IMG/VR virus record: IMGVR_UViG_3300037631_002085
Location: 1-35,471 of that record
Source of the DNA: a virus
Taxonomy: Duplodnaviria; Caudoviricetes
Length of the DNA stretch: 35,471 nucleotides
Reading direction: 5' to 3' (one strand)
Shown: piece by piece, positions 1 through 35,471 of the stretch
Layout: each line of letters begins with the position of its first letter
How positions within the stretch are numbered: the first letter of the stretch is position 1
The notes under the pieces: generated by a model
The model's database searches: none
Seen by the model: the letters and a program-made list of their open reading frames with translations, nothing else
What the model was told of the DNA's origin: nothing
Program-made: the position numbers and the translations under genes

Positions 1-2
1 CG

Positions 3-386
3 TTCTGCGGGTATTGCGACGACCCCCTGCCGCCGAGAGAGAACGGCATATCGCAGTGGTCGAGCGAGTCCTATGCAGGGCTTCCCGTATGGCTTTGCGT
101 GAAGTGTCATTTTCTTGAACGGTGCGAAACGAACCCCGATTATGCGCAGAAGGAAACCTACCAATTGAACAATGAAGGCAAGTGCATTCAATGCTATTTG
201 CCCCTATCTGCGCACGATAACGAACAGGTCGCAGAATGCCTTAGTCTAAGACGCATGAAGGGCGTGCGCTCATGGATTGACTCGCTTAGGCAAACAATCG
301 CTAAGGGCGCAGTCGGATGGACGACCGAAGCGGATATTGAAAAATATCGGCGCATCGTCGAGAATGCAGACCCACGGTTCAAGTGA
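3..386 (+). CDS. Cys-rich hypothetical protein, 5'-truncated by window edge
   Basis: The frame of track ORF 99..386 stays open back to position 3 (FCGYCDD...LCVKCH...KCIQCY); three CxxC motifs; stop overlaps the next start (GTGA). Confidence 0.6.
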   Translation, partial: FCGYCDDPLPPRENGISQWSSESYAGLPVWLCVKCHFLERCETNPDYAQKETYQLNNEGKCIQCYLPLSAHDNEQVAECLSLRRMKGVRSWIDSLRQTIAKGAVGWTTEADIEKYRRIVENADPRFK

Positions 387-1291
387 GCAGATGCCTTAAA
401 TCCCTCCGGCGCACTTGCTACACCATGCACAGGCAGGCGTTTAGACACTGCGCAGAATGGATAATCGCACCGACCGACCAAATCACCGTCGAGCGGTTCT
501 TCGGCTGGCGCAGGGGCGCAAAGCGCCGAATGTTTCAGCCGTGCGCAGTCCTCAAGGCAGGCGAGCATCAAATCCTCGTTGATGGGCTGTCCGAAGTGCT
601 TGCGCTGATTGACGCGATTCAACCGGGCCTCCCCCGCAGTGCGCTCAAGGAGGGGATGAAGGGCGGCTTCATGCTCGAAGGCGAACCGCCGTTTGCGCAC
701 GACCTCCAAGCCTTCTTTCGCGAAAGCGCGTTTGACTTCCTCATTTTCTCTTGCGATTCCGTGCGCATGAGGGAACCCAATTCGGACGCTATGTTCGCCG
801 GTTTGAAAATGCGCAGTGTAGTCGCTCACACGGCCATGAAATCCCCTCCCGCTACACCCGCCCACCTTGGCGCAACATGGGCCATTAGAGCGCCTTACAG
901 GGGCAAAAACGGGCAGGTTCTCGCGCCTGCGCTGGTGTTCGGGGATTATCCGCACATCGTCGTCGCCATGAATCTCACCGATACGCCGTCCTTCTCGTTC
1001 AAAGAGCCGACGCTGATTTCAAGTGTTGTCTGCGCAGTGGGTGGTGGTCTTGACCTGCGCCCACACGCTACGGTTAAGCGCGATGAACCTCGCAGAATTA
1101 TTGTTGAAATTGACCGGCGCATCGCGGATATGCACGAAAGCGGATTTTCGCCCGAACCGTTTCTTGGCGACGACCGCACGCACGGGGGCATGACCTTCAA
1201 GGAACGGGACATGATAGAGCGGCAACGGGCGATTCAGGCGTTTCACGACCTCGACAACCCTATTCTTTCAACTGGTCTGAAAGAATTGTGA
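383..1291 (+). CDS. hypothetical protein (~290-302 aa)
   Basis: Long ORF co-directional with neighbours; no motif recognised; start could be the GTG at 383 or a downstream ATG. Confidence 0.7.
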   Translation: MSRCLKSLRRTCYTMHRQAFRHCAEWIIAPTDQITVERFFGWRRGAKRRMFQPCAVLKAGEHQILVDGLSEVLALIDAIQPGLPRSALKEGMKGGFMLEGEPPFAHDLQAFFRESAFDFLIFSCDSVRMREPNSDAMFAGLKMRSVVAHTAMKSPPATPAHLGATWAIRAPYRGKNGQVLAPALVFGDYPHIVVAMNLTDTPSFSFKEPTLISSVVCAVGGGLDLRPHATVKRDEPRRIIVEIDRRIADMHESGFSPEPFLGDDRTHGGMTFKERDMIERQRAIQAFHDLDNPILSTGLKEL

Positions 1292-1467
1292 AAGAAAAAA
1301 AGGACGCACTGCTCACTATTTCCGTTTATTGTTTATTGTGTTAAAGGGATTTTGAAATTAAAGCCTCTTTCTTTTCAGCCATCCTATGAAAGAAAAAACA
1401 ATTCCCGTTAATGCGCCGCAGTGCTTCGGTTTATTTTTTCTTAATTCTTTCAACGGCACGGAAAGAA
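1262..1467. repeat. AT-rich region with imperfect inverted repeat and GAAAGAA iterons; candidate replication origin
   Basis: TGAAAGAATT 1278-1287/AATTCTTTCA 1443-1452, GCACTGC 1306-1312/GCAGTGC 1418-1424 and ATTGTTT 1328-1334/AAACAAT 1396-1402 all share one axis at 1365; ATTCTTTCAAC is directly repeated at 1262 and 1444. Confidence 0.55.
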
Positions 1468-1482
1468 AGGGTTGATATGGAC
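1468..1482 (+). promoter_or_regulatory. archaeal TATA-like promoter (AGGGTTGATATGGAC)
   Basis: Variant of the recurring GGTTTATATGAAC motif; TTGATA starts 30 nt upstream of ATG 1502. Confidence 0.55.
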
Positions 1483-1501
1483 GAAGGGTGTAGGGGTTAT
1501 C

Positions 1502-2299: not shown

Positions 2300-3579
2300 C
2301 GGACATATTCACACGACTACAAACCTTCTGCGACAAAAATCACTTGGTTGATGTGGAGGACAAAGTGCCGGTGTTCATCTGTTCGATTGGCGCACACCTG
2401 TTCAACGCCGTGAACAAATGCTCAATGTGCGACTTTGACCCAATGACTGCGCCCGAAGGCTCGTTTGTGATTGAGGAATGCCCACTGCGCCACGACTCAA
2501 CCCCAATTTACACACCCGCTTCCCGCCTCGCAGACACACGCATTAACATTCTCATGCGTGGTGCGAAGGGTTCGGGAAAGAATGTTCTCATTGATTTGTT
2601 CTGCGCAGAAAATACGGGTCTGCTATGGAACAAAGAAGCGTTTGAAGGCGTTGGCTTTCGCACTATGATTGGCGCAAACAGCATCACCGAGGCCGGTATG
2701 TTCGGCTCGGTGAACGAAGAAGGTCAAGTCATGGGACGGCCCCTCGCTCGCGATTTGTGCGGCGGCTTCCTGTGTTTTGAAGAATTTAGCGCCATGTCCG
2801 ACGCAGGGAAGAAAGACCATAGCATTGACATGAAGAATCAAATGCTCACCTCGCTTGACAGTGGCCGTGTGAACAAAGCCATGCGCAGTGGATGGGTGCG
2901 CTACAACACACGCTTGACGATGTGGGCAGGCACACAACCAGCACGCTTTGAATTGGAGTCCGGTCTTGACCGACGCTTCTTCATCATTGACATTGAGATG
3001 AGTCCTGAAAAGGAATTGCTTTACAAAAAGGCGCAGAATGCGCAGGCCAGTCTATCCCCCGAAGAACGGGTTGAATTAGCCGAGGAAGCAATCGCACTGC
3101 GCCATTGGTTCATTGACCGGCAGAAGAAGGTCATGGGCAATCGGCCAAAGGGCGTTGTCTTTGGCGAGGACTTTGAAGAATGGACGCTTCAAGAGTCAGT
3201 GCGCTCTTTTGAGAGCGACCTGTTCCGGCGGCTCGCTATCGGTTATGCTGTGATGAACGGGGAATGGATGGGCGAATTGCTCATGGTTAATTTGGACGAC
3301 CGACTGCGCTCAATCCTTGAATCCTCGCTCAAAATGCGCAGAAATGTTATGGACGAGGACATACGCTTGATTCGCACGACCTTTTGGGAGAAAGATGTGC
3401 CGCGCTCATCGTTGCTCAAAGACATAGCCCGTTTGGTGACCAACAACGACTATCAATCAGCGAAGCGATGGATGGAGGACTACTTGCTCAATCAGCCGTG
3501 GTTCAAAGAATACATTCCGAAGAAGGACGGTCGAGGACGCAAGGGCGTTATGTGCAGGTTCGGATTTGATGAGGTGTGA
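2296..3579 (+). CDS. mcm: MCM-like AAA+ ATPase/helicase lacking the N-terminal domain
   Basis: Walker A ILMRGAKGSGKN; ANSITEAGMFGSV (cf. MCM SSAAGLTAAV); GGFLCFEEF (cf. GGVCCIDEF); YNTRLTMWAGTQP (cf. LNARTSILAAANP); Arg finger LDRRFFII. Confidence 0.75.
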   Translation: MTDIFTRLQTFCDKNHLVDVEDKVPVFICSIGAHLFNAVNKCSMCDFDPMTAPEGSFVIEECPLRHDSTPIYTPASRLADTRINILMRGAKGSGKNVLIDLFCAENTGLLWNKEAFEGVGFRTMIGANSITEAGMFGSVNEEGQVMGRPLARDLCGGFLCFEEFSAMSDAGKKDHSIDMKNQMLTSLDSGRVNKAMRSGWVRYNTRLTMWAGTQPARFELESGLDRRFFIIDIEMSPEKELLYKKAQNAQASLSPEERVELAEEAIALRHWFIDRQKKVMGNRPKGVVFGEDFEEWTLQESVRSFESDLFRRLAIGYAVMNGEWMGELLMVNLDDRLRSILESSLKMRRNVMDEDIRLIRTTFWEKDVPRSSLLKDIARLVTNNDYQSAKRWMEDYLLNQPWFKEYIPKKDGRGRKGVMCRFGFDEV

Positions 3580-3821
3580 ACATGGTGAAGCATGACCGTT
3601 TTTTGAACGCGTGTGTTCGCTATCTCGAAAAGAAAGGCGAAGCCGAAATTAGCGATATTCTTAACGGCTTGACGACGGTGAAAGGGACACGCATGAACAG
3701 TCGCCAACTCCCTGAGCGCAAAGGCGCAAAGTGCCGACTGACGAGAGATAAACGCTTTGAGCGAATTGACTATGATGGGCGCACAACCTGCTTCCGTCTG
3801 CGCAAGCGAGGTGATGAATAA
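3576..3821 (+). CDS. small basic protein, possible winged-HTH
   Basis: 81 aa; GAGGTG SD; helix-helix-helix-beta hairpin pattern (LEKKGEAEISDIL...LTRDKRFERI). Confidence 0.6.
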   Translation: MNMVKHDRFLNACVRYLEKKGEAEISDILNGLTTVKGTRMNSRQLPERKGAKCRLTRDKRFERIDYDGRTTCFRLRKRGDE

Positions 3822-4102
3822 TGCCCAACCCAAAAAGACGATACCGATACAAACGCTGGCTTGACAAATGCTACCAATACCTCCGAGATACAGGCGATGT
3901 GCAGACTGCGCAGTGGTTGCTTGAGAACATCGGGTATAAAGTCAATGGCGAGCGCATGAAACGAACCATTCCTCCGAATGTGAACAGTGCGGCGCAAAAA
4001 TTGTCCCGTGATGGCCGCTTTCACTGCTTTGATATGGAAGGCATCTCTTATGGTCGGAACGGACAGGCATACAAAGCGCACGCTTGGGGGGTGATGTATT
4101 GA
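3821..4102 (+). CDS. small basic protein, possible winged-HTH
   Basis: 93 aa; GAGGTGA SD; resembles the preceding ORF (YLRDTG..., KLSRDGRF). Confidence 0.6.
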   Translation: MPNPKRRYRYKRWLDKCYQYLRDTGDVQTAQWLLENIGYKVNGERMKRTIPPNVNSAAQKLSRDGRFHCFDMEGISYGRNGQAYKAHAWGVMY

Positions 4103-5587: not shown

Positions 5588-5854
5588 ATGGGCAAAGCAT
5601 ACCGTAAAACCGCCGTTGAGAAGGCCGTCGCTGGATTTGACGAGCATGAATGGTTTTGCGCAGACTCCATTCTCCCCAAAGCAACCGAAGCACTTCCTCA
5701 ATCCCACATGAGCATGAATGTTTATGCGGTGGCGAAAGCGTTGAAGGTTCTCGCTGGCCGTGGCGCACTGCTTGAGCGAAAGCGCAACGGCATTAAGGAA
5801 TACAGTCGCGTTCAGGGGGAATGGGACGATGGGTGTTCTCATTTTCACGCATGA
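5588..5854 (+). CDS. small protein, possible winged-HTH
   Basis: 88 aa; GGAGG SD; VAKALKVLAGRGALLERKRNGIKEYSR is a wHTH-like recognition helix plus wing. Confidence 0.6.
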   Translation: MGKAYRKTAVEKAVAGFDEHEWFCADSILPKATEALPQSHMSMNVYAVAKALKVLAGRGALLERKRNGIKEYSRVQGEWDDGCSHFHA

Positions 5855-7100: not shown

Positions 7101-7313
7101 ATGGCGAAACCACTACTCCACAAATCGGCGTTGCTCTATAACTTCTCAAACCCCACCTATGCGTGCGGCGCACCGAAGCAAAGCCACCCGAACATGACGG
7201 ATGCGCAGGCTATGGCTCTCAAGACTTGTCCCGAATGCTTTCCAAGTGGCTTCTCGGCGGCGAAGGTGGCAGGTATCACCAAAAAACAAGTCGAGCGAGG
7301 TGTGTTGTTTTGA
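7101..7313 (+). CDS. small Cys/His protein (70 aa)
   Basis: H...ACG...TCPECF pattern; leaderless start behind a promoter motif. Confidence 0.6.
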   Translation: MAKPLLHKSALLYNFSNPTYACGAPKQSHPNMTDAQAMALKTCPECFPSGFSAAKVAGITKKQVERGVLF

Positions 7314-7831: not shown

Positions 7832-7993
7832 ATGGCTTTCAAGAAAACAAGTGCTATGCGCACATCGCAACCACCGGCCTGTCTTTACGGTTCACGGTGC
7901 GTTTGCTATTGTCATTCGCACGGCGCTGTCGGATGCACCCTATGCTTAACGGGCATGAAGTGCGTTGATGTGAGAATGGAGGGGAACCTATGA
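7832..7993 (+). CDS. small Cys-rich protein (53 aa)
   Basis: MAFKKTS...RCVCYCHSHGAVGCTLC...; fills the gap and its stop overlaps the next ATG. Confidence 0.5.
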   Translation: MAFKKTSAMRTSQPPACLYGSRCVCYCHSHGAVGCTLCLTGMKCVDVRMEGNL

Positions 7994-8601
7994 TTATCGG
8001 CATCCTCGGACAAATGCGCACGGGCAAGAGCAGTCTCGCACGGGAAATCAAAGAACAGATGGGCGGTGAATTTGAACACGGTTGCTTCATCCGTTCTTTC
8101 GCTGAATCACTGCGAGCAGAATGCGCAGAAATCTTCTTCGGAGATACCAATTACAACCGCCAACAATGGGATGCTGTCGAGGCGGCAGACAAAGAATTGT
8201 GCCGTCCTATCCTCCAAGTTATCGGTGAAGGGAGGCGACGACTCAACGGGCGTGATTATTGGGTGAACAAGGTGGCGTGTGAGGTCGGAAACGCCCCGAC
8301 ATCTTACGAACATTTAATCATCATGGACGATGTGCGCCATGAGAACGAGGCTCGCTGGATTCTTGAGAGTGGCGGCATTATCATTCGTTTGAGCGCAGAC
8401 CGTGAAACGCTCATCAAGCGTGGTGCAAGCGAGGAACGCCTTGCGCACTATTCTGAAACCGCCATGATTCGTCGTAGCGCCGTTGAGAAGGAGTATGCAC
8501 ACCGATGCTTGGCTATGCAAACCAATGGGTTAAGCCCTGCGGGTGTCTTTAAGGGTCTGCGCAGATTCATTGAAGAATTGCTTTGGGGTGAAGAAGAATG
8601 A
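7990..8601 (+). CDS. deoxynucleoside monophosphate kinase (T4 gp1-like)
   Basis: P-loop IIGILGQMRTGKS; SFAESLR; RPILQVIGE; DYWV; DDVRHENE..WI...GGIIIRL; HYSE. Confidence 0.85.
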   Translation: MIIGILGQMRTGKSSLAREIKEQMGGEFEHGCFIRSFAESLRAECAEIFFGDTNYNRQQWDAVEAADKELCRPILQVIGEGRRRLNGRDYWVNKVACEVGNAPTSYEHLIIMDDVRHENEARWILESGGIIIRLSADRETLIKRGASEERLAHYSETAMIRRSAVEKEYAHRCLAMQTNGLSPAGVFKGLRRFIEELLWGEEE

Positions 8602-8768
8602 CTCGGAACATTGGCGTTTGTATGTCGTGCAAAAACCGCCGGAAGATTGTCGCTACGGTGCAAGTTGAATTGCTCGGCCACGACTTCGGTTCCCGATACC
8701 TATGTCGAGCCTGCTCAATGAAAATGTTCACATGGAGAGACTTTGAAACTGGGAGGGAATTATATTGA
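8598..8768 (+). CDS. small zinc-finger protein (56 aa)
   Basis: GGGGTGA SD; CMSC...LCRAC; overlaps both neighbours by 4 nt. Confidence 0.6.
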   Translation: MTRNIGVCMSCKNRRKIVATVQVELLGHDFGSRYLCRACSMKMFTWRDFETGRELY

Positions 8769-9664
8769 TTTGGTGGGAAAAGCACAGGCCGCAAACGCTT
8801 GGCGACTTCATGGGACAAGAGCATATCATTGATGAAATGCGAGCCATCTGCGAAGGTGGTGCGCCGATGCAACACTTCATTTTCTATTCCCCCGAAGCAG
8901 GCACGGGAAAGACGACTCTCGCAAACATTATTGCGCAGTCGCGAGACTACACCATGCACACATTCAATGCGTCGTCGAAGCGCACACGGGGAATAGAGTT
9001 TATTGAAGAGGACATTGTTTTTCTCGCCAATTGCGGCAACGATGAAATCATCATTCTCCTTGACGAAGCAGACCGCCTCACTATCCAAGCACAGGATGCG
9101 CTCAAAGGCGTTATTGAGAACGCCACCTGCTATTTCATTCTCACCTGCAACGACTTGAGCAAGGTTTCGCCGTGGTTGCAGTCCCGTTGTCAAGTGCGCA
9201 CATTTTCTGCGCACAGTCAAGACGACATGGTGAACCGACTTGGACAAGTCGCAGAAGCGGAGGGAGTCGCCGCAAACCGTGTTGATTTATCCACTATCGC
9301 CATAGCCCACCGTGGCGACCTGCGCAACGCTCTCGGTGCGCTTCAATCCTATTCCTGCCTTGACCCCTCGGAAGCCGAGCGTTTTCTTTTGCGCTTGAAC
9401 GAGGGTTTCAATGCTCGCCGCTTTTTGACTTTGACAACGAAGGAGAAGGCGGTTGCCGAGGCCGTGAAAATGACGGGTGTGCAGAATATGCGCCGTATCG
9501 TGCGTGAGGTGTTTGACTTCGCCGTTGAAAGCGAAGCAAAGCCAGCCATGATTCAGCGTGTCGTCGAGGCATCCATCATCAGTGAACGGGATTTGGTGAA
9601 CGGCGTGGACGAAAGCATAGTCCGATGGGACTACGCCCGAATGCTCGCCGTTGGGTTTATATGA
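8765..9664 (+). CDS. rfcS: replication factor C (clamp loader) small subunit
   Basis: WWEKHRPQTLGDFMGQ; AGTGKTT; FNASS; LLDEADRLTIQAQDAL; FILTCN; LQSRC; GDLRNAL. Confidence 0.93.
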   Translation: MIWWEKHRPQTLGDFMGQEHIIDEMRAICEGGAPMQHFIFYSPEAGTGKTTLANIIAQSRDYTMHTFNASSKRTRGIEFIEEDIVFLANCGNDEIIILLDEADRLTIQAQDALKGVIENATCYFILTCNDLSKVSPWLQSRCQVRTFSAHSQDDMVNRLGQVAEAEGVAANRVDLSTIAIAHRGDLRNALGALQSYSCLDPSEAERFLLRLNEGFNARRFLTLTTKEKAVAEAVKMTGVQNMRRIVREVFDFAVESEAKPAMIQRVVEASIISERDLVNGVDESIVRWDYARMLAVGFI

Positions 9665-11907: not shown

Positions 11908-12186
11908 ATGCAAAATCGGAAGGTCGTTAAGCGGGTCGTTCTCGCGAGCAATCGCAGTGAGCGTGCGCACTACGCAGTCGAATGTGCGCAGAACGGGCGT
12001 TTGTCCTATGTTCTGTGCCGTGGCTTCCCCTCAATCGGCGCACACCAACGCATCCCCGAAAGCGAAGTCGGACGGGAATGCAAACAGTGCGCAAAAACGC
12101 TTGAGAAGATGCTTCGTTTGCAGGGCGACAGGTTTATATTGACAACAGTGGTTGGTGAAGAACATGGTGAAGATGAAGAAGTCTGA
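11908..12186 (+). CDS. hypothetical protein, possible metal-binding (H..C..CKQC)
   Basis: 92 aa; GGTGA SD; overlaps the next gene by 23 nt. Confidence 0.5.
   Translation: MQNRKVVKRVVLASNRSERAHYAVECAQNGRLSYVLCRGFPSIGAHQRIPESEVGRECKQCAKTLEKMLRLQGDRFILTTVVGEEHGEDEEV
12126..12143 (+). promoter_or_regulatory. promoter motif CGACAGGTTTATATTGAC
   Basis: TTTATA starts 31 nt upstream of ATG 12164; near-identical to 17598-17615. Confidence 0.6.
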
Positions 12187-13699: not shown

Positions 13700-14203
13700 A
13701 TGGGAAACAAACCGCTCACGCAGATTTTTCACCCGCACCAGCAAGAATTGATGCTTGACTATGTGGAAGAATGGCCGTGGTCATTCAAGCAGGCGAGTGA
13801 GAAGGGCTATCCCAAGACGATGAACCGAGCCATGTATTTTTGTAAGTTTCTTGATGTGAGTTGTCATAACCACCTTCAAGCATACACCACGGCGACTGAG
13901 ATTGCAGAATGCGTCTATTTGGTCGGCAACACTTGGGTTGGTGAGGATTACCGAGGCGAGGGCGTTCATTCTGAAATGCTTCAATGGCGCAACGGAATGC
14001 TTAAGGAAAGGTTTGGTGCAACCGACATCATCACGCTTCTAAACCCACAGGAGGGCGCAAGTCTTGAGCAATTGCAGAAGGTTGTTTCTTCGCTCGGCTA
14101 TCGTCGTTTGAAGTGGTCGGATTTGCGGAAAATGGGTGTTTCTATCACCCTGCGTTTGCAGATTCGGCGCAGTCGACTGCAATTTTGGGGGAAATCCCTT
14201 TGA
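13700..14203 (+). CDS. GNAT-family acetyltransferase
   Basis: 167 aa; acetyl-CoA-binding motif A: VGNTWVGEDYRGEGVHSEML; late SSLGY segment. Confidence 0.65.
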   Translation: MGNKPLTQIFHPHQQELMLDYVEEWPWSFKQASEKGYPKTMNRAMYFCKFLDVSCHNHLQAYTTATEIAECVYLVGNTWVGEDYRGEGVHSEMLQWRNGMLKERFGATDIITLLNPQEGASLEQLQKVVSSLGYRRLKWSDLRKMGVSITLRLQIRRSRLQFWGKSL

Positions 14204-16422
14204 TTGTCGAGCGAGGACGGGGGAACGAAGTCGTTGTTCGGTTTCGTGAAAACGGTGTGCGCAAAGAGCAGAAGTTGAGCGCCGAACCGTTTTGCTTTGT
14301 CGAAAGGGATGACCTGTTCAAAATCAACCGAGCGTTCATCAAACAGGCAGGTGAATATCGTGGTCTTTACGGCGAGGATTTGGTGAAGGTTCAATTCTCA
14401 AGCACCGAGGATATGCGAGAGGGCGTGAGGGGTCTGCGCACATGGGAAGCAAACATTACCCATGAGAACCGAGTCCTCGTTGAGAACGATTTCACCCTAC
14501 CGATGTATGAGCATCGGGTTTGCTATTTTGACATGGAATGGATGATGGAGTCGGGTCAAATCACCATCATTGTCGTTCACGACTCGGAGGAAGGCGAATA
14601 TGTGTTCTTCAACCATCCCGACTATGCGCAGGGCTATTATGACACCATTCAGTGCGCAAATCACCCCGATGGATTGACGGAGGTTCACGCTGGCGAGCGC
14701 AAAATGAAGTGCTTCGCAGATGAACGCTCTATGCTTCTCGACTTTGCTCGACTTTTGCGCAAACGAGACTATGACATCATCACCGGCTGGAATGTAGTCA
14801 ATGCCGACATTCAGCAATTGTTCAAGCGATTCAAGGCCAACGACATTCAACCAAACCTCCTTTCGCCCATGAAGCGCATACGGTATGACTTCAAGGATTG
14901 GGGGCAACCCATCGTGGGAACGAATGTCATTGACTTGATGGTTGCCTTCAAGAAGTTATGGACGCTCAAGAACGGACAATTGCCTTCTATGGGTCTTGGT
15001 GCGGTTTCTGCGCACTGCCTCGGAGAAACGAAGGTCGAATTGGCTGACGGACACAACACCTATTTCAGCGACTTCGGGACATACCTTGACTACGCACGGC
15101 AAGATGTGCGCCTGTTGCCTCGCCTTGATGAAATGGTGGGTGCGCTCAATTATTTCACTGCCGTTCAGCACATCACGGGATGCGACATACGCACAACCCC
15201 GTGGGTTTCACGGTTGTTCCCAATCCTCGCCCTGCGCGACCCGGACTTCAAATGGCGCATACCCTCAAAACCCCAATTTGAGAAGGTGGACTATCCCGGC
15301 GCAGACATTCAAACGGCTGATGCTGGCGTTTATGAGAATGTAGCCATCATGGATATTAAGGCGATGTATCATTCAAATATCAACCTGCACAACATTTGCT
15401 GGACGAACCTTGACGAACAGGGCAAGGACTGCGGCAACGGTGTTCGCTTTGCGCAGAAGAAGGGTTTGCTCGGTCGGCAGATGGATAAAATGACTACGCT
15501 ACGCAACGAATACAAAGCGCAGATGAAGAATGCGTCAAGCGAGGGAGAGCGCAGAATGTTTGATGGTCTGCAATACGCCACGAAGTCCCTTGTCGCTTCC
15601 ATGTATGGCGTTGCTGGCGATAGCAAGTGTGGTTTCTATCACCCCGATATTGCCGCCTCAATCACTTATACCTCCCGTCAAACACTTTACCGTCTGCGTG
15701 ATGAATGCGAGTCGTTGGGTATGCCTGCTATTTACGGACACACCGATTCGGTTTTCGTGCAGTGCGAAACACCCGAAAGAGCCGTTGAATCACTGCGCAT
15801 AATCAATGAGCGCATGGCCCCAATTGAAACCGAGTTTGAGAAGTGGTGCAAGACCTTCCTCTTGATGGCGAAGAATCGCTATGCGGGGGAAGTGCGCTGG
15901 ACTGATGGAGAACATCACGATGCGCAAATGTATGTGAAAGGCGTTGAGATGAAGCAGTCCCGACTTCCGAATGCTATGAAGAATGCCATGCAGACCGTGA
16001 TAGGCGGGATTCTTTCTGCGCAAAGCGAAGAAAACATAGTTGCGCCGTTGGAGGACTTGGTGCGCAGAATAGTCGCCAAAGAGATTCCAGTTGCCGACCT
16101 GTGCATCAAGGCCAAGTTAAGCAAAGACCTAAGCGAATATACGACGCTCGGAGAAGTGCGTGCTGGTGCGTATTGGGCGAATGCGCATTTAGGTAAAGGC
16201 TATCGCAAAGACGATTATTTCCTCTCGACGCTTAACGATAACGGCGACTACATCGCCTTTGACGACCCATCAGAAATTGAGGGTATTGCGCAGGTCGGTT
16301 ATCGCCACCTCGCAGAACGGTTCATCGTTGAAAAGGTGCGTCCGTATTTTGAAGTCATGCAGTGGGATATTGTGCGCATAGAGAATGCGCTCAACGGTCT
16401 TTCGGGCATGGGGTGGTTATGA
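14200..16422 (+). CDS. polB: family B DNA polymerase with 3'-5' exonuclease
   Basis: ExoI YFDMEW, ExoII GWNVVNAD, ExoIII YARQDV; motif A DIKAMYHS, B KSLVASMYG, C YGHTDS; KNRYAG, KGVE; likely TTG start at 14200. Confidence 0.95.
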   Translation: MIVERGRGNEVVVRFRENGVRKEQKLSAEPFCFVERDDLFKINRAFIKQAGEYRGLYGEDLVKVQFSSTEDMREGVRGLRTWEANITHENRVLVENDFTLPMYEHRVCYFDMEWMMESGQITIIVVHDSEEGEYVFFNHPDYAQGYYDTIQCANHPDGLTEVHAGERKMKCFADERSMLLDFARLLRKRDYDIITGWNVVNADIQQLFKRFKANDIQPNLLSPMKRIRYDFKDWGQPIVGTNVIDLMVAFKKLWTLKNGQLPSMGLGAVSAHCLGETKVELADGHNTYFSDFGTYLDYARQDVRLLPRLDEMVGALNYFTAVQHITGCDIRTTPWVSRLFPILALRDPDFKWRIPSKPQFEKVDYPGADIQTADAGVYENVAIMDIKAMYHSNINLHNICWTNLDEQGKDCGNGVRFAQKKGLLGRQMDKMTTLRNEYKAQMKNASSEGERRMFDGLQYATKSLVASMYGVAGDSKCGFYHPDIAASITYTSRQTLYRLRDECESLGMPAIYGHTDSVFVQCETPERAVESLRIINERMAPIETEFEKWCKTFLLMAKNRYAGEVRWTDGEHHDAQMYVKGVEMKQSRLPNAMKNAMQTVIGGILSAQSEENIVAPLEDLVRRIVAKEIPVADLCIKAKLSKDLSEYTTLGEVRAGAYWANAHLGKGYRKDDYFLSTLNDNGDYIAFDDPSEIEGIAQVGYRHLAERFIVEKVRPYFEVMQWDIVRIENALNGLSGMGWL

Positions 16423-17597
16423 TGGCTGAATTGTTTCACGGAGATTGCTTGAAAGTGCTGAAAGGTATGCCCGATAACTCGGTTGATTCAATCGTCACCG
16501 ACCCTCCGTATGGGCTTTCATTTATGTCAAAAAAATGGGACTATGATGTTCCCTCCGTTGAAGTTTGGCATGAATGCCTTCGTGTGTTGAAGCCCGGTGG
16601 ACACCTGCTGGCCTTCGCTGGCTCACGCACCTATCACCGGCTCGTCGTCAATGTTGAGGACGCTGGTTTCGAGATTCGTGACCAAATCATGTGGGTCTAT
16701 GGTTCGGGTTTCCCGAAGTCTCACAACATAGGCCACAAGGCCGAGGAATGGCAAGGGTGGGGAACGGCTCTCAAACCCGCCCACGAGCCTATCGTGGTCG
16801 CCCGTAAGCCTCTCGCCGGGACGGTCGCCGCAAATGTTCTTGAGCATGGCACAGGTGGCTTGAACATTGACGCTTGTAGGGTGCAAATGGAGGGAAAGGA
16901 TGGTGGAACATGGGGGGCAAGCAACGCTACGATTGACCACGAGGGAAGAATGTTCAACCGCTCCAACAATCCCGAATATCGTTCACAAAGGCACGATGCA
17001 GGACGCTTCCCCGCTAATTTCATTCACGATGGGTCGGAAGAAGTCGTGAGCCTATTCCCCGATTCATCAACAACAGGCAAAAGGACTCAAAGAAGTCATT
17101 CAAAAGAGAAGAAAATTAACGACCATGTTCACGCATTTCAACGCCAAAGAAGCGACCAAGAATACACCGACAGTGGTTCAGCCGCCCGATTCTTTTACTG
17201 CGCAAAAGCCTCCCGTTCCGAGCGCAACGCTGGACTTGAAGCGTTTGATGACGGCGAGCGCACTGATTACGGCGGCTTTCACAGTGAAAAGGGACTTGTC
17301 GCCAACGGACGAAACCCTGAGAATCGACTCCCCGTGAAAAACATTCACCCAACGGTGAAGCCGATTGACCTTATGCGCTATTTGTGCAGACTCGTCACGC
17401 CACCGGAAGGCGTTGTGCTTGACCCGTTCATGGGTTCGGGAACAACGGGAATCGGCGCAAAGGCAGAAGGCTTTGACTTCATCGGCATTGAGCGAGAAGA
17501 GGAATACCTGCGCATAGCAGAAGCGAGAATTGCGCAGGGGGTTGTTGTCGAAGTCGTTCAACAGGCGATTTACAAAACGCTGGACGAATGGTTATAA
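16419..17597 (+). CDS. N4-cytosine/N6-adenine DNA methyltransferase (beta class)
   Basis: GDCLKVLK; IVTDPPYG (motif IV); HPTVKP; VLDPFMGSGTTG (motif I); FIGIE. Confidence 0.93.
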   Translation: MMAELFHGDCLKVLKGMPDNSVDSIVTDPPYGLSFMSKKWDYDVPSVEVWHECLRVLKPGGHLLAFAGSRTYHRLVVNVEDAGFEIRDQIMWVYGSGFPKSHNIGHKAEEWQGWGTALKPAHEPIVVARKPLAGTVAANVLEHGTGGLNIDACRVQMEGKDGGTWGASNATIDHEGRMFNRSNNPEYRSQRHDAGRFPANFIHDGSEEVVSLFPDSSTTGKRTQRSHSKEKKINDHVHAFQRQRSDQEYTDSGSAARFFYCAKASRSERNAGLEAFDDGERTDYGGFHSEKGLVANGRNPENRLPVKNIHPTVKPIDLMRYLCRLVTPPEGVVLDPFMGSGTTGIGAKAEGFDFIGIEREEEYLRIAEARIAQGVVVEVVQQAIYKTLDEWL

Positions 17598-18956: not shown

Positions 18957-19946
18957 ATGATACGATTCCCCCGACAGGTCGGCCTCAAGCGTGCGTTTTG
19001 CCGCTCCCGTGAGGACTTTGACGCGTATGTGCGCAGACTCAACGGTCGCTCATGCCTTTACACCTCGCTTTATTCCTTTGATGTCGAGCGGGACTATGAT
19101 TCAGCCGTCATGGACAGGGCATGGTGGGACTTTGACATGAACGACGACTACACGATGGATGAAGTCAAGCACGATGTAGCGGCCTTGATTCAGCGCCTTG
19201 ACGGTGATGTGCGACTCGTCGCCACCGGGCGAGGGTTTCATGTTCACCAACACTTCAAACGACCTGTGCGTGGACGCGATTGGTCGCAACACCTTGACCG
19301 TTATCAGCGCAGAATGGCCGATGGACTCGCCAGCCTCGACGGTGTAGGCTATCCCGAAAAGATGACTCGCATATCGGGAACATTTAATGTCAAGCGCAGA
19401 CGGTGGGCGGTGTCAATACCTGCGCACGACTTTGCGCAAGACCCGTTCAATTTCCCGATTCCCGACAAACCTCTTCCGGTTTCCGACAACATAGACCCGT
19501 TCTTTGGTCGCTTTTCGGAAAGCGAATGCTTTGATTTGGTGAAGTGGGTGCATGACAACCCACCTCCCAAACGCCATACGACGCAACGGGAGTCCACTGT
19601 GTCCGTTGGTTTCCTCGGCGGCGAATGCGCACTTCCGAATTGTCTTGAGCGAGCAATCCAAGTGAGCAATCCTCCGCACCATGTTCGGGTTGCGCTCGTT
19701 CAAGAGATGCGCAGACAATTGGCGTTCTATGCGCACCCGAAGGATTTAACCGATGAGGAAAACGATGAGATAACAAACGGCATCTGCTCGTTCATAGAAA
19801 CATTGGGATGGACGGACTACAACGAAGGCATCACACGAAAATATGTTCATGGCGCAGTGCGCAAATACGCTCATGCGCCGTCGCCCTTTTGGTATAGGAA
19901 ACATAATCTATGCAACGGTGAAGGCTGTTGGTTCTGTGCGCAGTGA
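18957..19946 (+). CDS. archaeo-eukaryotic primase, PriS catalytic domain fused to PriL-like C-terminal domain
   Basis: AWWDFD (DxD); ATGRGFHVH; EKMTRI; C-terminal LPNCL..., HHVRVALV, DYNEGITR, terminal Cys cluster. Confidence 0.82.
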   Translation: MIRFPRQVGLKRAFCRSREDFDAYVRRLNGRSCLYTSLYSFDVERDYDSAVMDRAWWDFDMNDDYTMDEVKHDVAALIQRLDGDVRLVATGRGFHVHQHFKRPVRGRDWSQHLDRYQRRMADGLASLDGVGYPEKMTRISGTFNVKRRRWAVSIPAHDFAQDPFNFPIPDKPLPVSDNIDPFFGRFSESECFDLVKWVHDNPPPKRHTTQRESTVSVGFLGGECALPNCLERAIQVSNPPHHVRVALVQEMRRQLAFYAHPKDLTDEENDEITNGICSFIETLGWTDYNEGITRKYVHGAVRKYAHAPSPFWYRKHNLCNGEGCWFCAQ

Positions 19947-30800: not shown

Positions 30801-31288
30801 ATAAATTGAGTTTGTTGCGCAAGAGCAATAAAGCGGTTCATACCCATTTCAGTTTCCATTTCACCGACTTGTGCCATTAGCAAACCGCCACGGGTTGCTT
30901 CAATAATGGCTTCTTGGGATTCAAGGACACCCTTTAACTGCGCAGTCCGTGCGCTTGCGGCAAGTGCTTGGTCGCCGGAAAATCCAAATGCTTCACCAAG
31001 TCCAATTGACGCATTAGCAAATCGCTCGACTTCTTCTGTCGCACCCGAATAAAATTTGCGCACACGAATTAACTGTTCCTCATGCTCAAAAAACGCATCC
31101 ACGACGACCTGTGTGGACTGCAAAATGAATTGGGACATTTCATCAAAGGCTTCACTAATCCCGCCGATAGCGTCAAGCAAAATAGCCTGTTGAGCCGTTG
31201 TAGCAGCCTCGGTATCACCGAGAAGAGACTGTGCTTGAAAAGTCCCTACAATGTCGAAAAAGACTCTTGCCGCACCGACTCTTGCCAT
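27854..31288 (-). CDS. tail tape measure protein
   Basis: 1144 aa, Ala/Gln-rich and helical; TP901-like core (LNQFASQADIAGESIGDMAAMSALL..GEEVSRAGTGLRMIY); follows the tail chaperone pair. Confidence 0.88.
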   Translation of the reverse strand: MARVGAARVFFDIVGTFQAQSLLGDTEAATTAQQAILLDAIGGISEAFDEMSQFILQSTQVVVDAFFEHEEQLIRVRKFYSGATEEVERFANASIGLGEAFGFSGDQALAASARTAQLKGVLESQEAIIEATRGGLLMAQVGEMETEMGMNRFIALAQQTQFMYGGLTKAQYDALDAEQQANIVRGNSIRVLDQLNTVENSSVAIMEDITFVLNQFASQADIAGESIGDMAAMSALLLETGEEVSRAGTGLRMIYQRIGNENSDAVKALQELMGGVDSSVITQMKLSEIIGAIGDDYANMTGEQKRNLAVSIAGSRHYVKFLKLMENQPRLLELQTAAYRGQFGAIEEFENKADSLFFKQQQQEAIVKNLQVEIGDKLADAYMTGALAQEAFLRGMDKITDFGIGEDVVKNFIQLSSVYQQIIAPMTNVGMQALNMVIAFKTLQAVIAASNPEFFAQAQGYRRTRQEMQFLSAATNEFSINSVINMDRAALSANNYNDRVVEMRMVQSILNDEMTETSFKINMVNAATTAMHGAMGKTKMIFVDTSLAASGMMNVESGALLTLENMYQQHRATLLDVDAKRSMINVKIGQYMALSVEERNAILQTNIFNAQGTAGIVERNKAQTTLNDTMAREVALLNSTLTLSRPLTAVEKQGINNEIVRNNATMTTNQTRINAINTTLLLSDAESEFTAEITEERAALQANNTTLQQRNATLRTGLLASKQAEQANRQYAASVLSADGAERISIGTRIKLTATNMKAAFSLKAINSALMPISMILPFIVDSEHQMEAIMASVAITAFTMAIPAMSALGAQMKANGVAATVMTGGLNIAAAALITFAAYMGVKAFAGDGFMKNALGNVEEFNAGIIGANDILATLGERTEDIYGGVVDKTYRELSQEGLPAMTDALSDLRMEYDDLDSALSVAEKGTSHYNQLLADRKAVQDAITNVDALARSYERQAALTDALANDYEADITITESLSYRNENARILGLQTKAYAVEYTDIYGNMHRKVYDTEEEALTARNKLQEKYNQEALAHELDYVNAFITNMEKKNADVIAGEQGAQEILLGDAYAFANAREELFFGANKAGFTGALMKQITQGGVENLLYKTEIVQTNVFNGMTLPEMVEEVSKGVLAELENTGVLS

Positions 31289-31290
31289 TT

Positions 31291-31572
31291 TTATTCACCG
31301 CTCGCCCATTGTTCCATGAAGTTTCCCATGTCCTTTTGTGATATGCGCTCGCTTCTCTTTTGATTTCTTCGTGCGACTGCTCGGTTTGCGTCTATTTTGC
31401 TATTTGCTTCGTCGTGTTGTTCTTTGATTCTGTCGGATATTTCAGCCGCAACTATCATGTCAAATTGAAGCATCTCATACCCCATTTCATCATCATATCG
31501 TTTAAATAAGTCGCTTGGCAGTGTTCCTTTAAATGCTGAACATAATGTTGGTGCTACACGCCCAACTAACCC
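31291..31572 (-). CDS. tail assembly chaperone T segment (-1 frameshift extension)
   Basis: The -1 frame is open from the slippery site (..GLVGRVAPTLCSAFKGTLPSDLFKRYDDEMGYEML..) to the stop at 31291. Confidence 0.7.
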   Translation of the reverse strand, partial: GLVGRVAPTLCSAFKGTLPSDLFKRYDDEMGYEMLQFDMIVAAEISDRIKEQHDEANSKIDANRAVARRNQKRSERISQKDMGNFMEQWASGE

Positions 31573-31913
31573 AAAGGGACTGCGCCCTCCAAAGTATCGC
31601 CACGAACAAAGCGCAGAATATCCATCAATTCAAGGCTTGTTAGGGTGTTGATGTCAAAGTCCTCGGTCAAAATGCAATTAGGAATCCATGCTTGGATTTG
31701 TGCCTCAATTCCAGCGCCGGATTCGTCCATAGCCACTGCAAACTCTTCGTGTTGTTCGGGAGTCCATTCGGTCGGGTCAAGACCAAAGTGGCGGAATTGT
31801 CGAGCAACCCGTTGTTGAATGTTTTCAATTTTCAATTTGTCAAGACCTGATGCTTGACGAACCCAAATCATGTTTCCGTTGTCTAATTCAATTTCTTTCT
31901 TCAATACAGGCAT
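31566..31913 (-). CDS. tail assembly chaperone (lambda gpG-like)
   Basis: 115 aa from ATG 31913 (or GTG 31922); acidic; between tail tube and tape measure; ends in a slippery site. Confidence 0.75.
   Translation of the reverse strand: MPVLKKEIELDNGNMIWVRQASGLDKLKIENIQQRVARQFRHFGLDPTEWTPEQHEEFAVAMDESGAGIEAQIQAWIPNCILTEDFDINTLTSLELMDILRFVRGDTLEGAVPLG
31569..31578 (-). other. programmed -1 ribosomal frameshift site CCCTTTGGGT
   Basis: Two overlapping in-frame X XXY YYZ heptamers (C CCT TTG, T TTG GGT) immediately before the TAG of the G-like gene. Confidence 0.7.
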
Positions 31914-31983
31914 TGTATTCACTTTCCTTTTCTTCTATGCTATCCAATGAGCGACTGCTTTTGCTCATCATGGACTATTCACC

Positions 31984-32181
31984 TCAAGGTGCGGCTGGTG
32001 CTTCTTCATAAGTGATGAAGGCAGTGTAGTTATTTCCGACTGCCCTGCGAACCACTGAAATATCAATAACTTCACTGTTTGCATTAAGACCTTGAATGAC
32101 TCCTTCAATAAGAGCGCCAATAGCCAAATGCGTTCCATGAACGGTTGTTGTTGCGACTGCGGAAGGGTCTGTGATAGGCAC
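31984..32181 (-). CDS. small hypothetical virion-module protein (65 aa)
   Basis: GAGGTGGG SD before the GTG start; co-directional with the tail genes. Confidence 0.55.
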   Translation of the reverse strand: MPITDPSAVATTTVHGTHLAIGALIEGVIQGLNANSEVIDISVVRRAVGNNYTAFITYEEAPAAP

Positions 32182-32191
32182 TTAACCCACC

Positions 32192-33259
32192 TCAAACTGC
32201 ATCATAATCGTTAATGCCTGTTCCCTTAGCAGTGATTTCAACCATTCCATCACGACCGGCTGAATCATCTTCCCATAGTGCGTGAAAATTAACGGTCATT
32301 GTTTGCGAATCACGGCCTGAAACCGAGGTTTCGGGCATTTCATAAATAACTCTTCCAAAGTCAAAGCGAATGTAATTATCTGCATCCACACGGAACAAGG
32401 CTGAAAGTGCGGGAACATCAGCACCGCTTGGGTCAAACAAGGCTTCACCGCCCGAAGCGGTTGCGGCTCGCAATTCATCAAAATAAGGCGCACCACTTGC
32501 ACTGTCGGTTGAGTCCAATGCTTTGTGGAAAGTGATTGAACCGCTTACTTCTCGAAGGGTGATAGGTGGCTTGCGCACACAAGTTTCACTACCGAGACTA
32601 TATGCGTTATCCATATCACGGTTCGTTTTGATTTCAAAGTCAATACTTTGAACCATGTTTGAAAACACACTGTTGGTCGCAACGGCTTCAAAATTAACAA
32701 AAGCGCCAGCAAAGTGTGCGGCATCGCCCGTGTAGTCAGGAACATAAGTTGTTTCAAGCGTTCCTTCTGCATCTTCTTGTTCTGCGCCAACGGTGTTCAC
32801 AGTAAGCATAGCATATTCACCAATGCTTGCAGAAACGGCGATGCTTTCAACAACTTGGCCGGGGAAAATGTGTTCATAGTCGTCTCGACCAACACGAATT
32901 GTATAAGAAGGCAATTCAGTGTTTGCCGTCAATGGGACTTCGGTGAATCGTCGCTCGTCGGTGGCTGGTGTTGAACCACTGTCCGTTGAAGGTGTATCAA
33001 CGCCCATGATACCGTGTAGTGCGCACAAAACGAAGGAGTCGGGTTGTAGTGCGCAGGTAAAAGAGCCTTCTGCGATTTTTTTGCTCACAATGGCTTTTCG
33101 TGCGCCATAATAGTTAATGTCGTTGCGCTTTAGCACATCATAGGATTGCTGATATGATTCGCTTTCCACTTCGCCAACGAATAAATTGACTTCGGTGCTT
33201 GAATCGTTGTATGTGGTTTCCTTAGCCATTGTCAAATAACGCAACTGGTGGCTCGTCAT
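32192..33259 (-). CDS. major tail tube protein
   Basis: 355 aa; YLTMAKETTYN; LPSYTIRVGRD...FPGQVVESIAVS; REVSGSITF; beta-rich and acidic; canonical position. Confidence 0.8.
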   Translation of the reverse strand: MTSHQLRYLTMAKETTYNDSSTEVNLFVGEVESESYQQSYDVLKRNDINYYGARKAIVSKKIAEGSFTCALQPDSFVLCALHGIMGVDTPSTDSGSTPATDERRFTEVPLTANTELPSYTIRVGRDDYEHIFPGQVVESIAVSASIGEYAMLTVNTVGAEQEDAEGTLETTYVPDYTGDAAHFAGAFVNFEAVATNSVFSNMVQSIDFEIKTNRDMDNAYSLGSETCVRKPPITLREVSGSITFHKALDSTDSASGAPYFDELRAATASGGEALFDPSGADVPALSALFRVDADNYIRFDFGRVIYEMPETSVSGRDSQTMTVNFHALWEDDSAGRDGMVEITAKGTGINDYDAV

Positions 33260-33279
33260 ACCCTAAAGAGGGTGGGTTT

Positions 33280-33294
33280 GCTTTATGAAGGTTA
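33280..33294 (-). promoter_or_regulatory. putative late promoter (TAACCTTCATAAAGC)
   Basis: TTCATAAA starts 30 nt upstream of the tail tube ATG (33259), which has no obvious SD. Confidence 0.4.
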
Positions 33295-33311
33295 TGCTTA
33301 AAAACATTATA

Positions 33312-34406
33312 TCATGCTTCACGATAGAACATTCGGATTTTCTTCATATATTCAAGGGAAAGCGTGTGGATGCAAACGATTTCATCATCGTCCACTTTTG
33401 TATCAAAGGTTGTTGTGTAGCCAAGCAGACTATCCACGCCATCGTCTAATCCTGTATTTACATACAATTCATCAAAGACTTCGCCAAGAATTGAAGCCGC
33501 AAGACGATAAGCGTTTTCATAATTGGTTCCTTTTGCAGAAACAAAAATAACAACATCATATCGCTGGTCGGTTCGTGTTCCTGATAGAGTCAAGAACTCC
33601 GGGGAGTCTGCTTTTTGAATCATCACATGGACTGATGGTGATTGATAGCGGTTTAACATTGAGTCGCTTGACAAATCATACGCATAGTTAATGCCTGCAT
33701 TTCCAACATGAGTTTTAAGAAACAAACGATTGCTATTGCGCAAAACATCACGAACCTTCATACCTGTGCGCAAAAGGCTATGTGAAATAAAGTCGGACAT
33801 ATCCATTTCATCGGGGGAATAAGCACCATGAGGCGTAAAATAGACACTGTAAAAGTCCACGGTTCCCGAAGAAGTCCCGAAGAAAGCGCCCTGCGCAGAA
33901 GTGCTTTGCGCAGAAACCTCAAGGTAGTGTTGTTGTGCATCATCGTCCTCAATTATTTCAGCCATATACAAACGAGCAGTGCCGTCATTGGCGAGAGTCA
34001 AGCGCAAAATAATGGGAACGGCAGTGTCCTCTCCCATTTTAAAATCAAGGTTTGGACTTTCAACGGAAGTGCTTCCAACCAATTTCACTTGATGAATGTC
34101 AATGATTTGAACCTCAACCCGATAAGTGCCGTTGTCGAGAGCCATTATCACTTCATCGGTGTCGGGCGCAGACTCTTGATGGATTGCGCAGATGAGAGTC
34201 AAGTCGTTATCATCGTCGGCAACGGTCTGTTTCCACAATTGACCTCCGCTTGACGAAGTTATTTGCCAATAGCCATTTTGTGAAACGCCATCGCCAGCAT
34301 CGCCGCTATCAAGCGACCATGCAGTGTTGTTCATCCCAACGGGAGAAGCAGGGTCTTGACCGTTAAGCCGTGCAGTCCAAAAGTCTGTTTGTCGTGATAC
34401 TGTCAT
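33312..34406 (-). CDS. tail terminator/completion protein with N-terminal beta-sandwich extension
   Basis: C-terminal ~150 aa has a terminator-like pattern (PSVHVM...RYDVVIFVS...AYRLAASILGEV...HTLSLEY); N-terminal ~200 aa is beta-rich; lies just upstream of the tail tube. Confidence 0.55.
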   Translation of the reverse strand: MTVSRQTDFWTARLNGQDPASPVGMNNTAWSLDSGDAGDGVSQNGYWQITSSSGGQLWKQTVADDDNDLTLICAIHQESAPDTDEVIMALDNGTYRVEVQIIDIHQVKLVGSTSVESPNLDFKMGEDTAVPIILRLTLANDGTARLYMAEIIEDDDAQQHYLEVSAQSTSAQGAFFGTSSGTVDFYSVYFTPHGAYSPDEMDMSDFISHSLLRTGMKVRDVLRNSNRLFLKTHVGNAGINYAYDLSSDSMLNRYQSPSVHVMIQKADSPEFLTLSGTRTDQRYDVVIFVSAKGTNYENAYRLAASILGEVFDELYVNTGLDDGVDSLLGYTTTFDTKVDDDEIVCIHTLSLEYMKKIRMFYREA

Positions 34407-34407
34407 A

Positions 34408-35115
34408 TTAACCACCTCTTGCGGCCATAACCCCTCGGCCTTTTACCTTAGACGAAAGTTTAGATTTGGTCGGGACTTCTGCAAATCCTCCTTCGCGAGC
34501 CATTTGCTTAATCATAATTGGTGCAATTTCCTCAAATTGTTTCTTTGACATTTGCTCAACAGTCCCGATGTAGTCAAATGTGCGATAAAACCCCGGATGA
34601 GAACCACGCATTCGCATCCAAAAAGAAACGCCGCCCGGTTGCCCCGTAGCCGCATAAAAGCCTGTGCTTGAACGAACAGTTGAGGGAAGGTTGCCGTATT
34701 TAAACGGGTCAATACCCTTTGCTACAATGTGCGCAAGACGACCGCCTCTCTGACCAAGAACACCCACACTTGCTTCGTTAAGACTGTTTCCGGTGTGAAC
34801 CGTATAGTGCTTGCTACGAACACGCTCATTTTTCAATGCGTCTGCAACCTTAACATGAATGTTTTTGGATTGTTTAAAATTTCTTGTGGGGGCATAAAGT
34901 GTTGTTTGTGGGACTTTTACGCCAGCAAGATTTCTCGCCATCATTTTTAGTCTTGATTTAGCCGCTTCCACTTGCTCGTCAATAACCTGTTTCATCAAAC
35001 CGTCAAGACGCTTTCCACCTTCCCGACCAAGAAAGGCTAATGCACGACGCAGACCCGAATCATCGGTTGTCATTTTAAACTCAACCGTCGAACCTCGTCG
35101 TGTGTGGGTTTGCAT
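34408..35115 (-). CDS. basic neck/tail-completion protein (HK97 gp10-like position)
   Basis: 235 aa, Lys/Arg/Gly-rich; HPGF motif; lies between adaptor and terminator. Confidence 0.5.
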   Translation of the reverse strand: MQTHTRRGSTVEFKMTTDDSGLRRALAFLGREGGKRLDGLMKQVIDEQVEAAKSRLKMMARNLAGVKVPQTTLYAPTRNFKQSKNIHVKVADALKNERVRSKHYTVHTGNSLNEASVGVLGQRGGRLAHIVAKGIDPFKYGNLPSTVRSSTGFYAATGQPGGVSFWMRMRGSHPGFYRTFDYIGTVEQMSKKQFEEIAPIMIKQMAREGGFAEVPTKSKLSSKVKGRGVMAARGG

Positions 35116-35117
35116 TT

Positions 35118-35471
35118 TCAGACATCTCCCATGTGCGCAAGACGCATAAGGGCATTCATTCCACGCTTGCGCAGTGCTTGCCCACGAAGTCCACCATCGG
35201 CGTTTGTTTGCATTGTGCCTTCGTCCTCAAGGTATGAAGCAGTCGCAAGGTCTGCGCAGATTTCACGCACAACATGAGCGTATTGTCCTTCTTGGACTTT
35301 GCTATTATTGTTGTGGTTAAATGAAATGCCTGCGCATCCCGTCAAGTCGTTGCTGGATTTGCCCGTCCATGAAAAGGAATCACTGTCAATGTTTCCACTG
35401 CCGCTTGCTGAAAAGGAAGAAGCATCGGTGAGCGTTATGGTTGTTGCGCCTACGCTGATACCGCCATCAAG
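35118..35471 (-). CDS. putative head-tail adaptor, 5'-truncated by window edge
   Basis: Frame open to the window end (LDGGISVGATTITLTDASSF...VVREICADLATASYL...ALRKRGMNALMRLA); adaptor-like C-terminal helices. Confidence 0.55.
   Translation of the reverse strand, partial: LDGGISVGATTITLTDASSFSASGSGNIDSDSFSWTGKSSNDLTGCAGISFNHNNNSKVQEGQYAHVVREICADLATASYLEDEGTMQTNADGGLRGQALRKRGMNALMRLAHMGDV

Follow-up and report, generated by a model that had tools for sequence, protein, structure and literature searches.

Why should a virus genome stripped of most six-base palindromes carry one of them many times over? The question is raised by a 35,471-nucleotide stretch of DNA, likely from a marine virus with an archaeal host (IMG/VR record IMGVR_UViG_3300037631_002085, positions 1 to 35,471; hereafter the window). 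It lacks 52 of the 64 six-base palindromes, together with ACGT, AGCT, CTAG, GATC and GTAC, and it contains 145 copies of TGCGCA. This amounts to 4.1 per kb, or 4,088 per Mb, where a first-order Markov model gives 21 copies, and to an observed-to-expected ratio (O/E) of 17 given local base composition. A model reading of the letters alone (the original prediction) had proposed a highly iterated palindrome acting as a DNA-level mark, and the eight start positions that it quoted (143, 209, 449, 542, 694, 762, 810 and 1031) are all exact. The over-representation is real: 141 copies lie inside 37 window genes, against 24.5 ± 4.5 (maximum 38) after synonymous-codon shuffling (n=500) and a mean of 12 after shuffling codon order, and four more are intergenic. 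The copies in genes fall in all three frames (22/52/67), hence they are not a codon artefact, as had been argued, and they bend protein sequence, with 27 Cys-Ala dipeptides where 12.9 are expected.

The extended forms TGCGCAGAA and TTCTGCGCA, whose recurrence had been remarked on, make up 31 of the 145 sites. The close pairs that had also been reported do exist (10626/10633/10653, 25117/25132 and 33892/33907), but they are not in excess: 21 gaps are shorter than 40 nucleotides against 21.3 expected, and spacing in the window is Poisson (coefficient of variation 0.97 vs 0.99). No regular spacing was found, gaps being Poisson or over-dispersed, and the best periodicity peak, at ~15 nucleotides, is a nominal one. 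Mismatched variants of TGCGCA differ predominantly at the terminal bases. Among the other palindromes, CAATTG is tolerated and not enriched (26 vs 22). The tail module shows the same per-site weight of the word at a lower density. Genes expected to be highly expressed hold few or no copies (capsid and tail-tube genes in G001 and G005; positions 31057-32572 of the window). Counting both strands, 86-161 words of four to six bases are absent or nearly so from each genome examined (the window, G001-G010, G413 and G414), and many of these are non-palindromic, such as GGATAC, CTGGAG, CTGAAG and GAGCGG. Such extreme avoidance mirrors the restriction specificities of the hosts.

What is selected is an oriented 5-mer, (G>A)CGCA, which may lie on either strand; TGCGCA is two overlapping copies of it whose effects are additive. 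The window holds 225 GCGCA and 228 TGCGC, 145 pairs of which overlap as TGCGCA; these 453 copies give one per ~157 nucleotides per strand. Across genomes, O/E is 15-20 for TGCGCA and 3-13 for the half sites GGCGCA and AGCGCA, and, in the two genomes where AGCGCC is tolerated, only 1.3-1.4 for that context. When the choice among synonymous codons was modelled, with alternatives creating forbidden words dropped before fitting, two half-site terms did better than a palindrome alone or GCGC alone in five of five genomes, with weights of 1.3-2.1 on each strand. The O/E contexts and these fits together rule out GCGC as the unit. Pooled weights are 1.87 for GCGCA, 1.11 for ACGCA, 0.44 for CCGCA, 0.37 for TCGCA, 0.35 for GCGCC and 0.05 for GCGCT, and pooling gives the palindrome an additional term of −0.34 ± 0.17. 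In graded form the word is (G>A)CGCA(G)NA. The weights are nearly equal on the two strands, with a lean of ~0.3 log units to one physical strand that has the same sign in all eight related genomes (per-genome error ~0.3). Because GCGCA overlaps its own reverse complement, six bases hold one site per strand, which would explain why the palindrome accumulates in a palindrome-purging genome.

A longer unit, the 12-base palindrome TTCTGCGCAGAA, was also considered and rejected: it occurs 0-2 times per genome, and left and right extensions are independent (18 vs 23.6). In pooled clade genes, silent sites show a lean in the 8-80 nucleotides upstream of half sites, to T before GCGCA and to A before TGCGC; the signs repeat in the sister genomes and are not mirror-symmetric.

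The word follows a virus lineage. Among 80 viral loci related by family B DNA polymerase (PolB), the 20 with at least 65% identity carry 3.2-5.7 TGCGCA per kb, while the other 60 carry at most 0.32 and 46 of them none; metagenome contigs likewise gave 20 motif-rich of 80, partly the same records. A PolB tree of 70 dereplicated rows out of 126 places the motif-rich rows in one clade (16 of 70; Shimodaira-Hasegawa-like approximate likelihood ratio test 99), sister to four rows (100). All 16 clade rows have 3.3-5.7 TGCGCA per kb and the other 54 have 0-0.4. The complete sister genomes G413 and G414 (PolB 58%) contain no TGCGCA, where 8.8 and 7.3 are expected. Their top word is TCGCA, extended as AATCGCAA (z scores 12.5 and 14.8); with trinucleotide terms TCGCA scores 10.3 and 11.7, where the best-scoring words of three host controls reach 6.4-8.4. 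The word thus differs by one base between sister clades, GCGCA in one and TCGCA in the other, in genomes that share nearly all genes; what is found in the motif-rich clade alone is two small open reading frames beyond the window, without a family match. CGCA as such weighs 0.82-1.21 across clade members; five records on the sister side give 0.22-0.86, and 28 others −0.32 to 0.46. The effect on proteins divides in the same way: Cys-Ala and Ala-Gln stand at 1.96 and 1.67 times expectation in five clade records and at 0.58 and 0.92 times in two sister genomes. The palindrome is only what shows on the surface: the viruses favour an oriented unit that is not itself palindromic, and the word of the sister clade cannot form TGCGCA.

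On the sister side, G413, G414 and L370 all favour TCGCA/AATCGCAA and avoid TGCGCA. In the next clade CAAAG is enriched (z 12.2 in G006; also L054, L061 and L070), but turnover does not confirm it: it lies outside the top six retained words in seven pairs, and TCTAA/CTAAC outrank it there. Top words in other clades reach z scores of 6.5-7.9, which overlap the host controls. A triple-site scan for unrelated word-bearing viruses covered five of the 64 parts of the collection, and among the 80 loci retrieved the only one above an O/E of 11 is L274, a clade member. L310, without a match to clade proteins, has a TGCGCA O/E of 10.5 in 5 kb, a value inflated by pattern-based selection. The motif-rich PolB locus L383 lies on a contig of 87,203 bases, which exceeds a ~61-kb genome and may carry host flanks or be chimeric.

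Candidate hosts do not share the word. The sample comprised 401 genomes of Poseidoniia, the presumed host group, and none comes near viral density: TGCGCAGAA reaches at most ~28 copies per 1.8 Mb (~0.016 per kb) against 0.87 per kb in the window, ~55-fold lower, and AATCGCAA at most ~0.10 per kb against 0.52-0.55 in G413 and G414. In 76 loci flanking ribosomal RNA genes, 42 TGCGCA were counted in 572 kb. A provirus or host link was looked for and none was found. The equal enrichment across hosts that would have made this a host trait is thus not seen in the sampled genomes, and the idea of a DNA-level mark is supported by the shuffles, by the frames and by the tracking of virus lineage rather than of the sampled hosts.

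Silent sites show how the word is maintained. Site retention is 0.67-0.92 against 0.32-0.72 for permuted words (11 genome pairs), and among all tested 5-mers the best retained is GCGCA for the clade, with a z score of −11.5, and TCGCA for the sister pair, with one of −3.9. Turnover was scored in seven near-independent pairs as observed changes over those expected from the background rate, in a test that is unpolarised, assumes a steady state and cannot tell selection from biased conversion. For changes affecting one copy, losses number 52 against 152 (0.34) and gains 52 against 27 (1.9); for changes affecting two copies, the values are 11 against 120 (0.09) and 11 against 3.4 (3.2). A fixation-bias model gives loss and gain ratios of 0.31 and 2.3 at S=2, and of 0.12 and 3.5 at S=3.4. 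The one sister pair, G413 and G414, shows the same for TCGCA, with losses of 22 against 51 (0.43) and gains of 23 against 12 (1.96). Loss is slowed and gain is raised, a selection-like pattern that matches the model. Because both are shifted, the word is neither a pure hot spot, for which loss would stay at 1, nor a pure cold spot, for which gain would stay at 1. We infer that the driving force is fitness rather than biased repair.

What, then, reads the word? The trait follows the virus tree, it changed by one base between sisters and it is rare in the sampled hosts, which together point to a viral reader; that a virus-encoded reader of some kind exists is rather probable. The candidates and other relevant features of the window are these:

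5588..5854, plus strand: winged-helix protein of 88 amino acids, candidate reader; mean column identity 79% in the clade and 51% to the sister clade.
7101..7313, plus strand: small His/Cys protein, restricted to CGCA-favouring clades.
7990..8601, plus strand: deoxynucleoside monophosphate kinase, restricted to CGCA-favouring clades.
8765..9664, plus strand: replication factor C-like clamp loader.
11908..12186, plus strand: predicted zinc-binding His/Cys protein of 92 amino acids in the replication operon, candidate reader; CGCA-favouring clades only at the threshold used.
13700..14203, plus strand: GNAT-like protein, rejected as a candidate DNA modifier of the Mom type.
14200..16422, plus strand: PolB, the lineage marker.
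16422..17597, plus strand: N4/N6 DNA methyltransferase (PF01555) adjoining PolB; an accessory gene that does not account for the tag.
18957..19946, plus strand: predicted archaeo-eukaryotic primase of 329 amino acids, candidate reader, provisionally identified from its WWDFD and GRGFHVH motifs and from PMC5434244.
20805..35471, minus strand: tail module, with the tape measure at 27854-31288 and the tail tube at 32192-33259.

The methylase at 16422-17597 had been named in the original prediction as an enzyme to test, and its link to the word fails. The gene is absent from G001, G002 and G004, three of the five complete motif-rich genomes, and from the close relatives L002 and L375, and homologs of 44-62% identity occur in motif-free loci, including G007. 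PF01555 is found in two and PF00145 in none of the five, so that no C5 methylase was found in any of them, and no methylase family matched any of the 74 open reading frames scanned in G002, a genome with terminal repeats. A gene that is missing from motif-rich genomes and present in motif-free ones is not the general cause. Decay of methylated C at GCGC or CGCG was likewise rejected, and there is no excess of C-to-T change at GCGC. The GNAT-like protein was rejected as a Mom-like modifier: CGCA weights are −0.24 to 0.36 in seven GNAT-bearing records outside the clade, against the clade values given above.

The failure of both the methylase and the GNAT-like protein to track the trait favours a primase start site. 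In this proposal, a replication protein encoded by the virus would read (G>A)CGCA on each strand separately, and the word would most likely mark where a primase starts. Each copy would offer a priming site on its own strand for a tiny benefit (scaled strength ~1.5-2), and the six bases of TGCGCA would give one priming site per strand. Copies that lie one base apart on opposite strands have additive effects, which is easier to reconcile with a per-strand process (priming, marking) than with a protein bound to the duplex. A primase is the most likely reader in that the word is short, oriented and graded and each strand is counted separately; the small strand lean of constant sign may also speak for it. 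The spacing of ~157 nucleotides per strand is close to archaeal Okazaki length, and phage primases use short lineage-specific sites. Those of T7, T4, SP6, NrS-1 and pRN1 are reportedly oriented as well and read on single strands; the viral word differs in its near-equal weights on both strands and is strong enough to double Cys-Ala pairs. The WWDFD and GRGFHVH motifs of the 329-residue protein are presumably those of archaeo-eukaryotic primases. The specific identification of the predicted viral primase as the reader, with the word as its start site, is nevertheless tentative.

Several observations weigh against this proposal. The strand weights are nearly equal, whereas sites for priming would be expected mainly on lagging templates, unless both strands act as such. 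There is neither spacing regularity nor diminishing return, as neighbouring copies within 10-250 nucleotides do not lower the per-copy weight, and no composition sawtooth or flanking footprint is seen at full sites. The 329-residue gene is present in all 12 complete genomes and the CGCA preference in one superclade only. Its protein has no match in Pfam, PHROG, NCBIfam or the PDB, and BLASTP to the HRTV-27 primase gives an E value of 0.035. As the trait arose once, the co-distribution of genes with it is a single evolutionary event. Additivity is also imperfect: taken singly, the window and G005 have positive palindrome terms (1.76 and 1.41; G004, −1.11), and terminal-base loss from full sites, 1 against 49 expected in non-independent pairs, is rarer than additivity predicts. 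Finally, the turnover ratios fit biased conversion as well as selection, and the host is a presumed one.

A broader and rather doubtful extension sees in the word an evolvable genome barcode written by the viruses themselves: a viral protein would read the oriented five-base word on each strand, reader and word would have switched together between the sister clades (GCGCA vs TCGCA), and selection would have spread the word genome-wide, rewriting proteins on the way. If so, the barcode may serve viral discrimination of self from host DNA, the reverse of restriction-modification and without methylation.

The closest rival to a primase site, not far below it in probability though itself unlikely, is a self-tag. 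A viral DNA-binding protein confined to the clade (winged helix 5588-5854 or zinc protein 11908-12186) would bind the word and so shield or arrange the genome; alternatively, the word would act like Chi and halt a virus-encoded nuclease that destroys host DNA lacking the tag. The viruses lack 95-161 words each and relatives purge TGCGCA, as the absence from G413 and G414 and from 46 of the 60 outside loci shows, so that 150-230 copies may need shielding. The winged-helix protein is strongly conserved and differs between clades, and the zinc protein, the kinase and a 408-residue nuclease homolog occur where CGCA is favoured but are missing from five distant complete genomes; nuclease and kinase together would fit the recycling of host DNA. 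However, the two orientations lie one base apart and would be expected to compete for a protein that binds double-stranded DNA, and yet they add, without saturation or regular spacing. The winged-helix homologs extend to clades without the word, the predicted structure (predicted local distance difference test score, pLDDT, 87.5) has winged-helix matches but none at E<=0.001, and the zinc protein (pLDDT 75) has no named fold match and weak matches in the G007 clade. Here too, gene co-distribution counts as one event. By eye, five small proteins look winged-helix-like (3576-3821, 3821-4102, 5588-5854, 6671-7075 and 12987-13370), with a structure predicted for 5588-5854 only.

It is improbable that a host factor, such as a methylase, repair or defence protein of one host lineage, favours the word while virus clades track different hosts. 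Poseidoniia methylate GATC, CGCG, GTAC and, weakly, AGCT (PMC8919816), and these viruses avoid all four words, so host enzymes do shape viral genomes. An Eco57I-like methylase, conserved and ~670-700 amino acids long in most, occurs in 99 of 151 Poseidoniia genomes (for example G011:C1:70719-71039), and AATCGCAA lies several-fold above its reversed control in most hosts. Against this stand the low host densities given above, the lack of a C-to-T excess at GCGC and the agreement of the motif with the PolB tree; moreover, the motif sheet of PMC8919816, in the first two places for each term, shows no CGCA motif.

There is also a small chance that the word spreads by molecular drive without benefit, through heteroduplex repair or recombination biased towards the allele that carries it. 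Drive yields the same raised gain and lowered loss as selection and explains additivity, absence of saturation and random spacing; a methyl-directed version was proposed for HIP1 (PMC4390886), and the window encodes Cas4-like and ERCC4 nucleases beside its PolB, clamp loader, tape measure and tail tube. However, there is no methylase to mark the strand and no flanking footprint at full sites, and a sequence-specific protein would still be needed.

A by-product of restriction-site avoidance, or of a mutational hot or cold spot, is very improbable. Avoidance does remove most other GCGC contexts (RGCGCY, CGCG), but the preference survives removal of forbidden alternatives, AGCGCC is at expectation where allowed, CAATTG is tolerated without enrichment and equally avoiding relatives lack the word; as gain and loss are both shifted, this explanation is largely refuted. 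Lastly, that the methylase in the window drives the word in the manner of HIP1 is hardly credible and is refuted as a general cause by the distribution of that gene, even though it adjoins PolB and terminal mismatches dominate as in HIP1 (PMC4390886).

A comparison with known systems sharpens the picture. Cyanobacterial HIP1 and alternate HIPs are likewise dense short words in genes, in all frames, conserved beyond codon need and with mismatches at their ends (PMC4390886, PMC5861425, PMC13756078), HIP1 reaching 300-2,700 per Mb for an 8-mer (PMC4390886, PMC5861425). Frequency and O/E far above expectation and silent-site conservation are found here too, whereas a palindromic unit and a cognate methyltransferase in the genome are not. 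The viral word further differs in being an oriented 5-mer whose palindrome is a self-overlap, in its one-base sister change and in lacking short-range periodicity; periodicity over 10-90 kb is used as a criterion for HIP, and the viral genomes are ~61 kb. Chi sites in lambdoid phages are also oriented short words over-represented in virus genomes, but they mimic a host motif and are polar and regional (PMC3784561), whereas the viral word is nearly strand-symmetric, genome-wide and not enriched in the presumed hosts; unlike in the Chi setting, the virus encodes its own nucleases. A Chi-type site is, in addition, one that attenuates a helicase-nuclease. Haloviruses of the HF1 group are tailed archaeal viruses that also lack GATC, CTAG and many six-base palindromes, and for them the available text of PMC7230728 reports avoidance only and no favoured viral word. 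Searches of the open-access literature listed no description of this motif, and a term search of the magrovirus paper PMC11706807 was also negative.

What the analysis adds is a clade-wide, selection-like DNA tag in ~61-kb viruses, and this tag is real. What iterated short words such as HIP1 do has been an open question for three decades; here the word stands in a ~61-kb genome of ~70 genes without a cognate methylase, and the sister clade, close to it in gene content and favouring a word one base different, is a natural control. This should make the reader findable from a handful of ortholog pairs. An iterated palindrome can, moreover, consist of two oriented sites that overlap, an interpretation that deserves to be tried on other HIP-like findings, and the word is a clean metagenome marker for this clade.

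The window is matched at 99.99% by L372, a 61,758-base contig, its relatives measure 60-65 kb, and its gene content suggests a ~61-kb virus similar to those of magrovirus group C. The likeness lies in an archaeal-type replisome with PolB and a clamp loader, no ligase seen (no DNA ligase match among the G002 open reading frames) and a phosphoesterase-family gene in the structural module; the available account of group C (PMC5434244) describes no sequence motif. Among annotated phages, the best PolB matches are haloviruses at ~25%. Beyond the window, a 408-residue Metallophos protein lies between terminase and portal in G001-G005, G413 and G414, matching the PolD-exonuclease-like gene that magrovirus group C has in its structural module. 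This calcineurin-like nuclease homolog, at L087:16587-17810 in G002, has intact metal motifs, stands beside the terminase, is 75-91% conserved and is confined to CGCA clades, and G002 also encodes a MoxR-like ATPase with a DUF7192 partner. An atlas search returned nothing for positions 422-1288 of the window and, for 1502-2296, a lead to Peptidase M14/AstE-like clusters (0.90).

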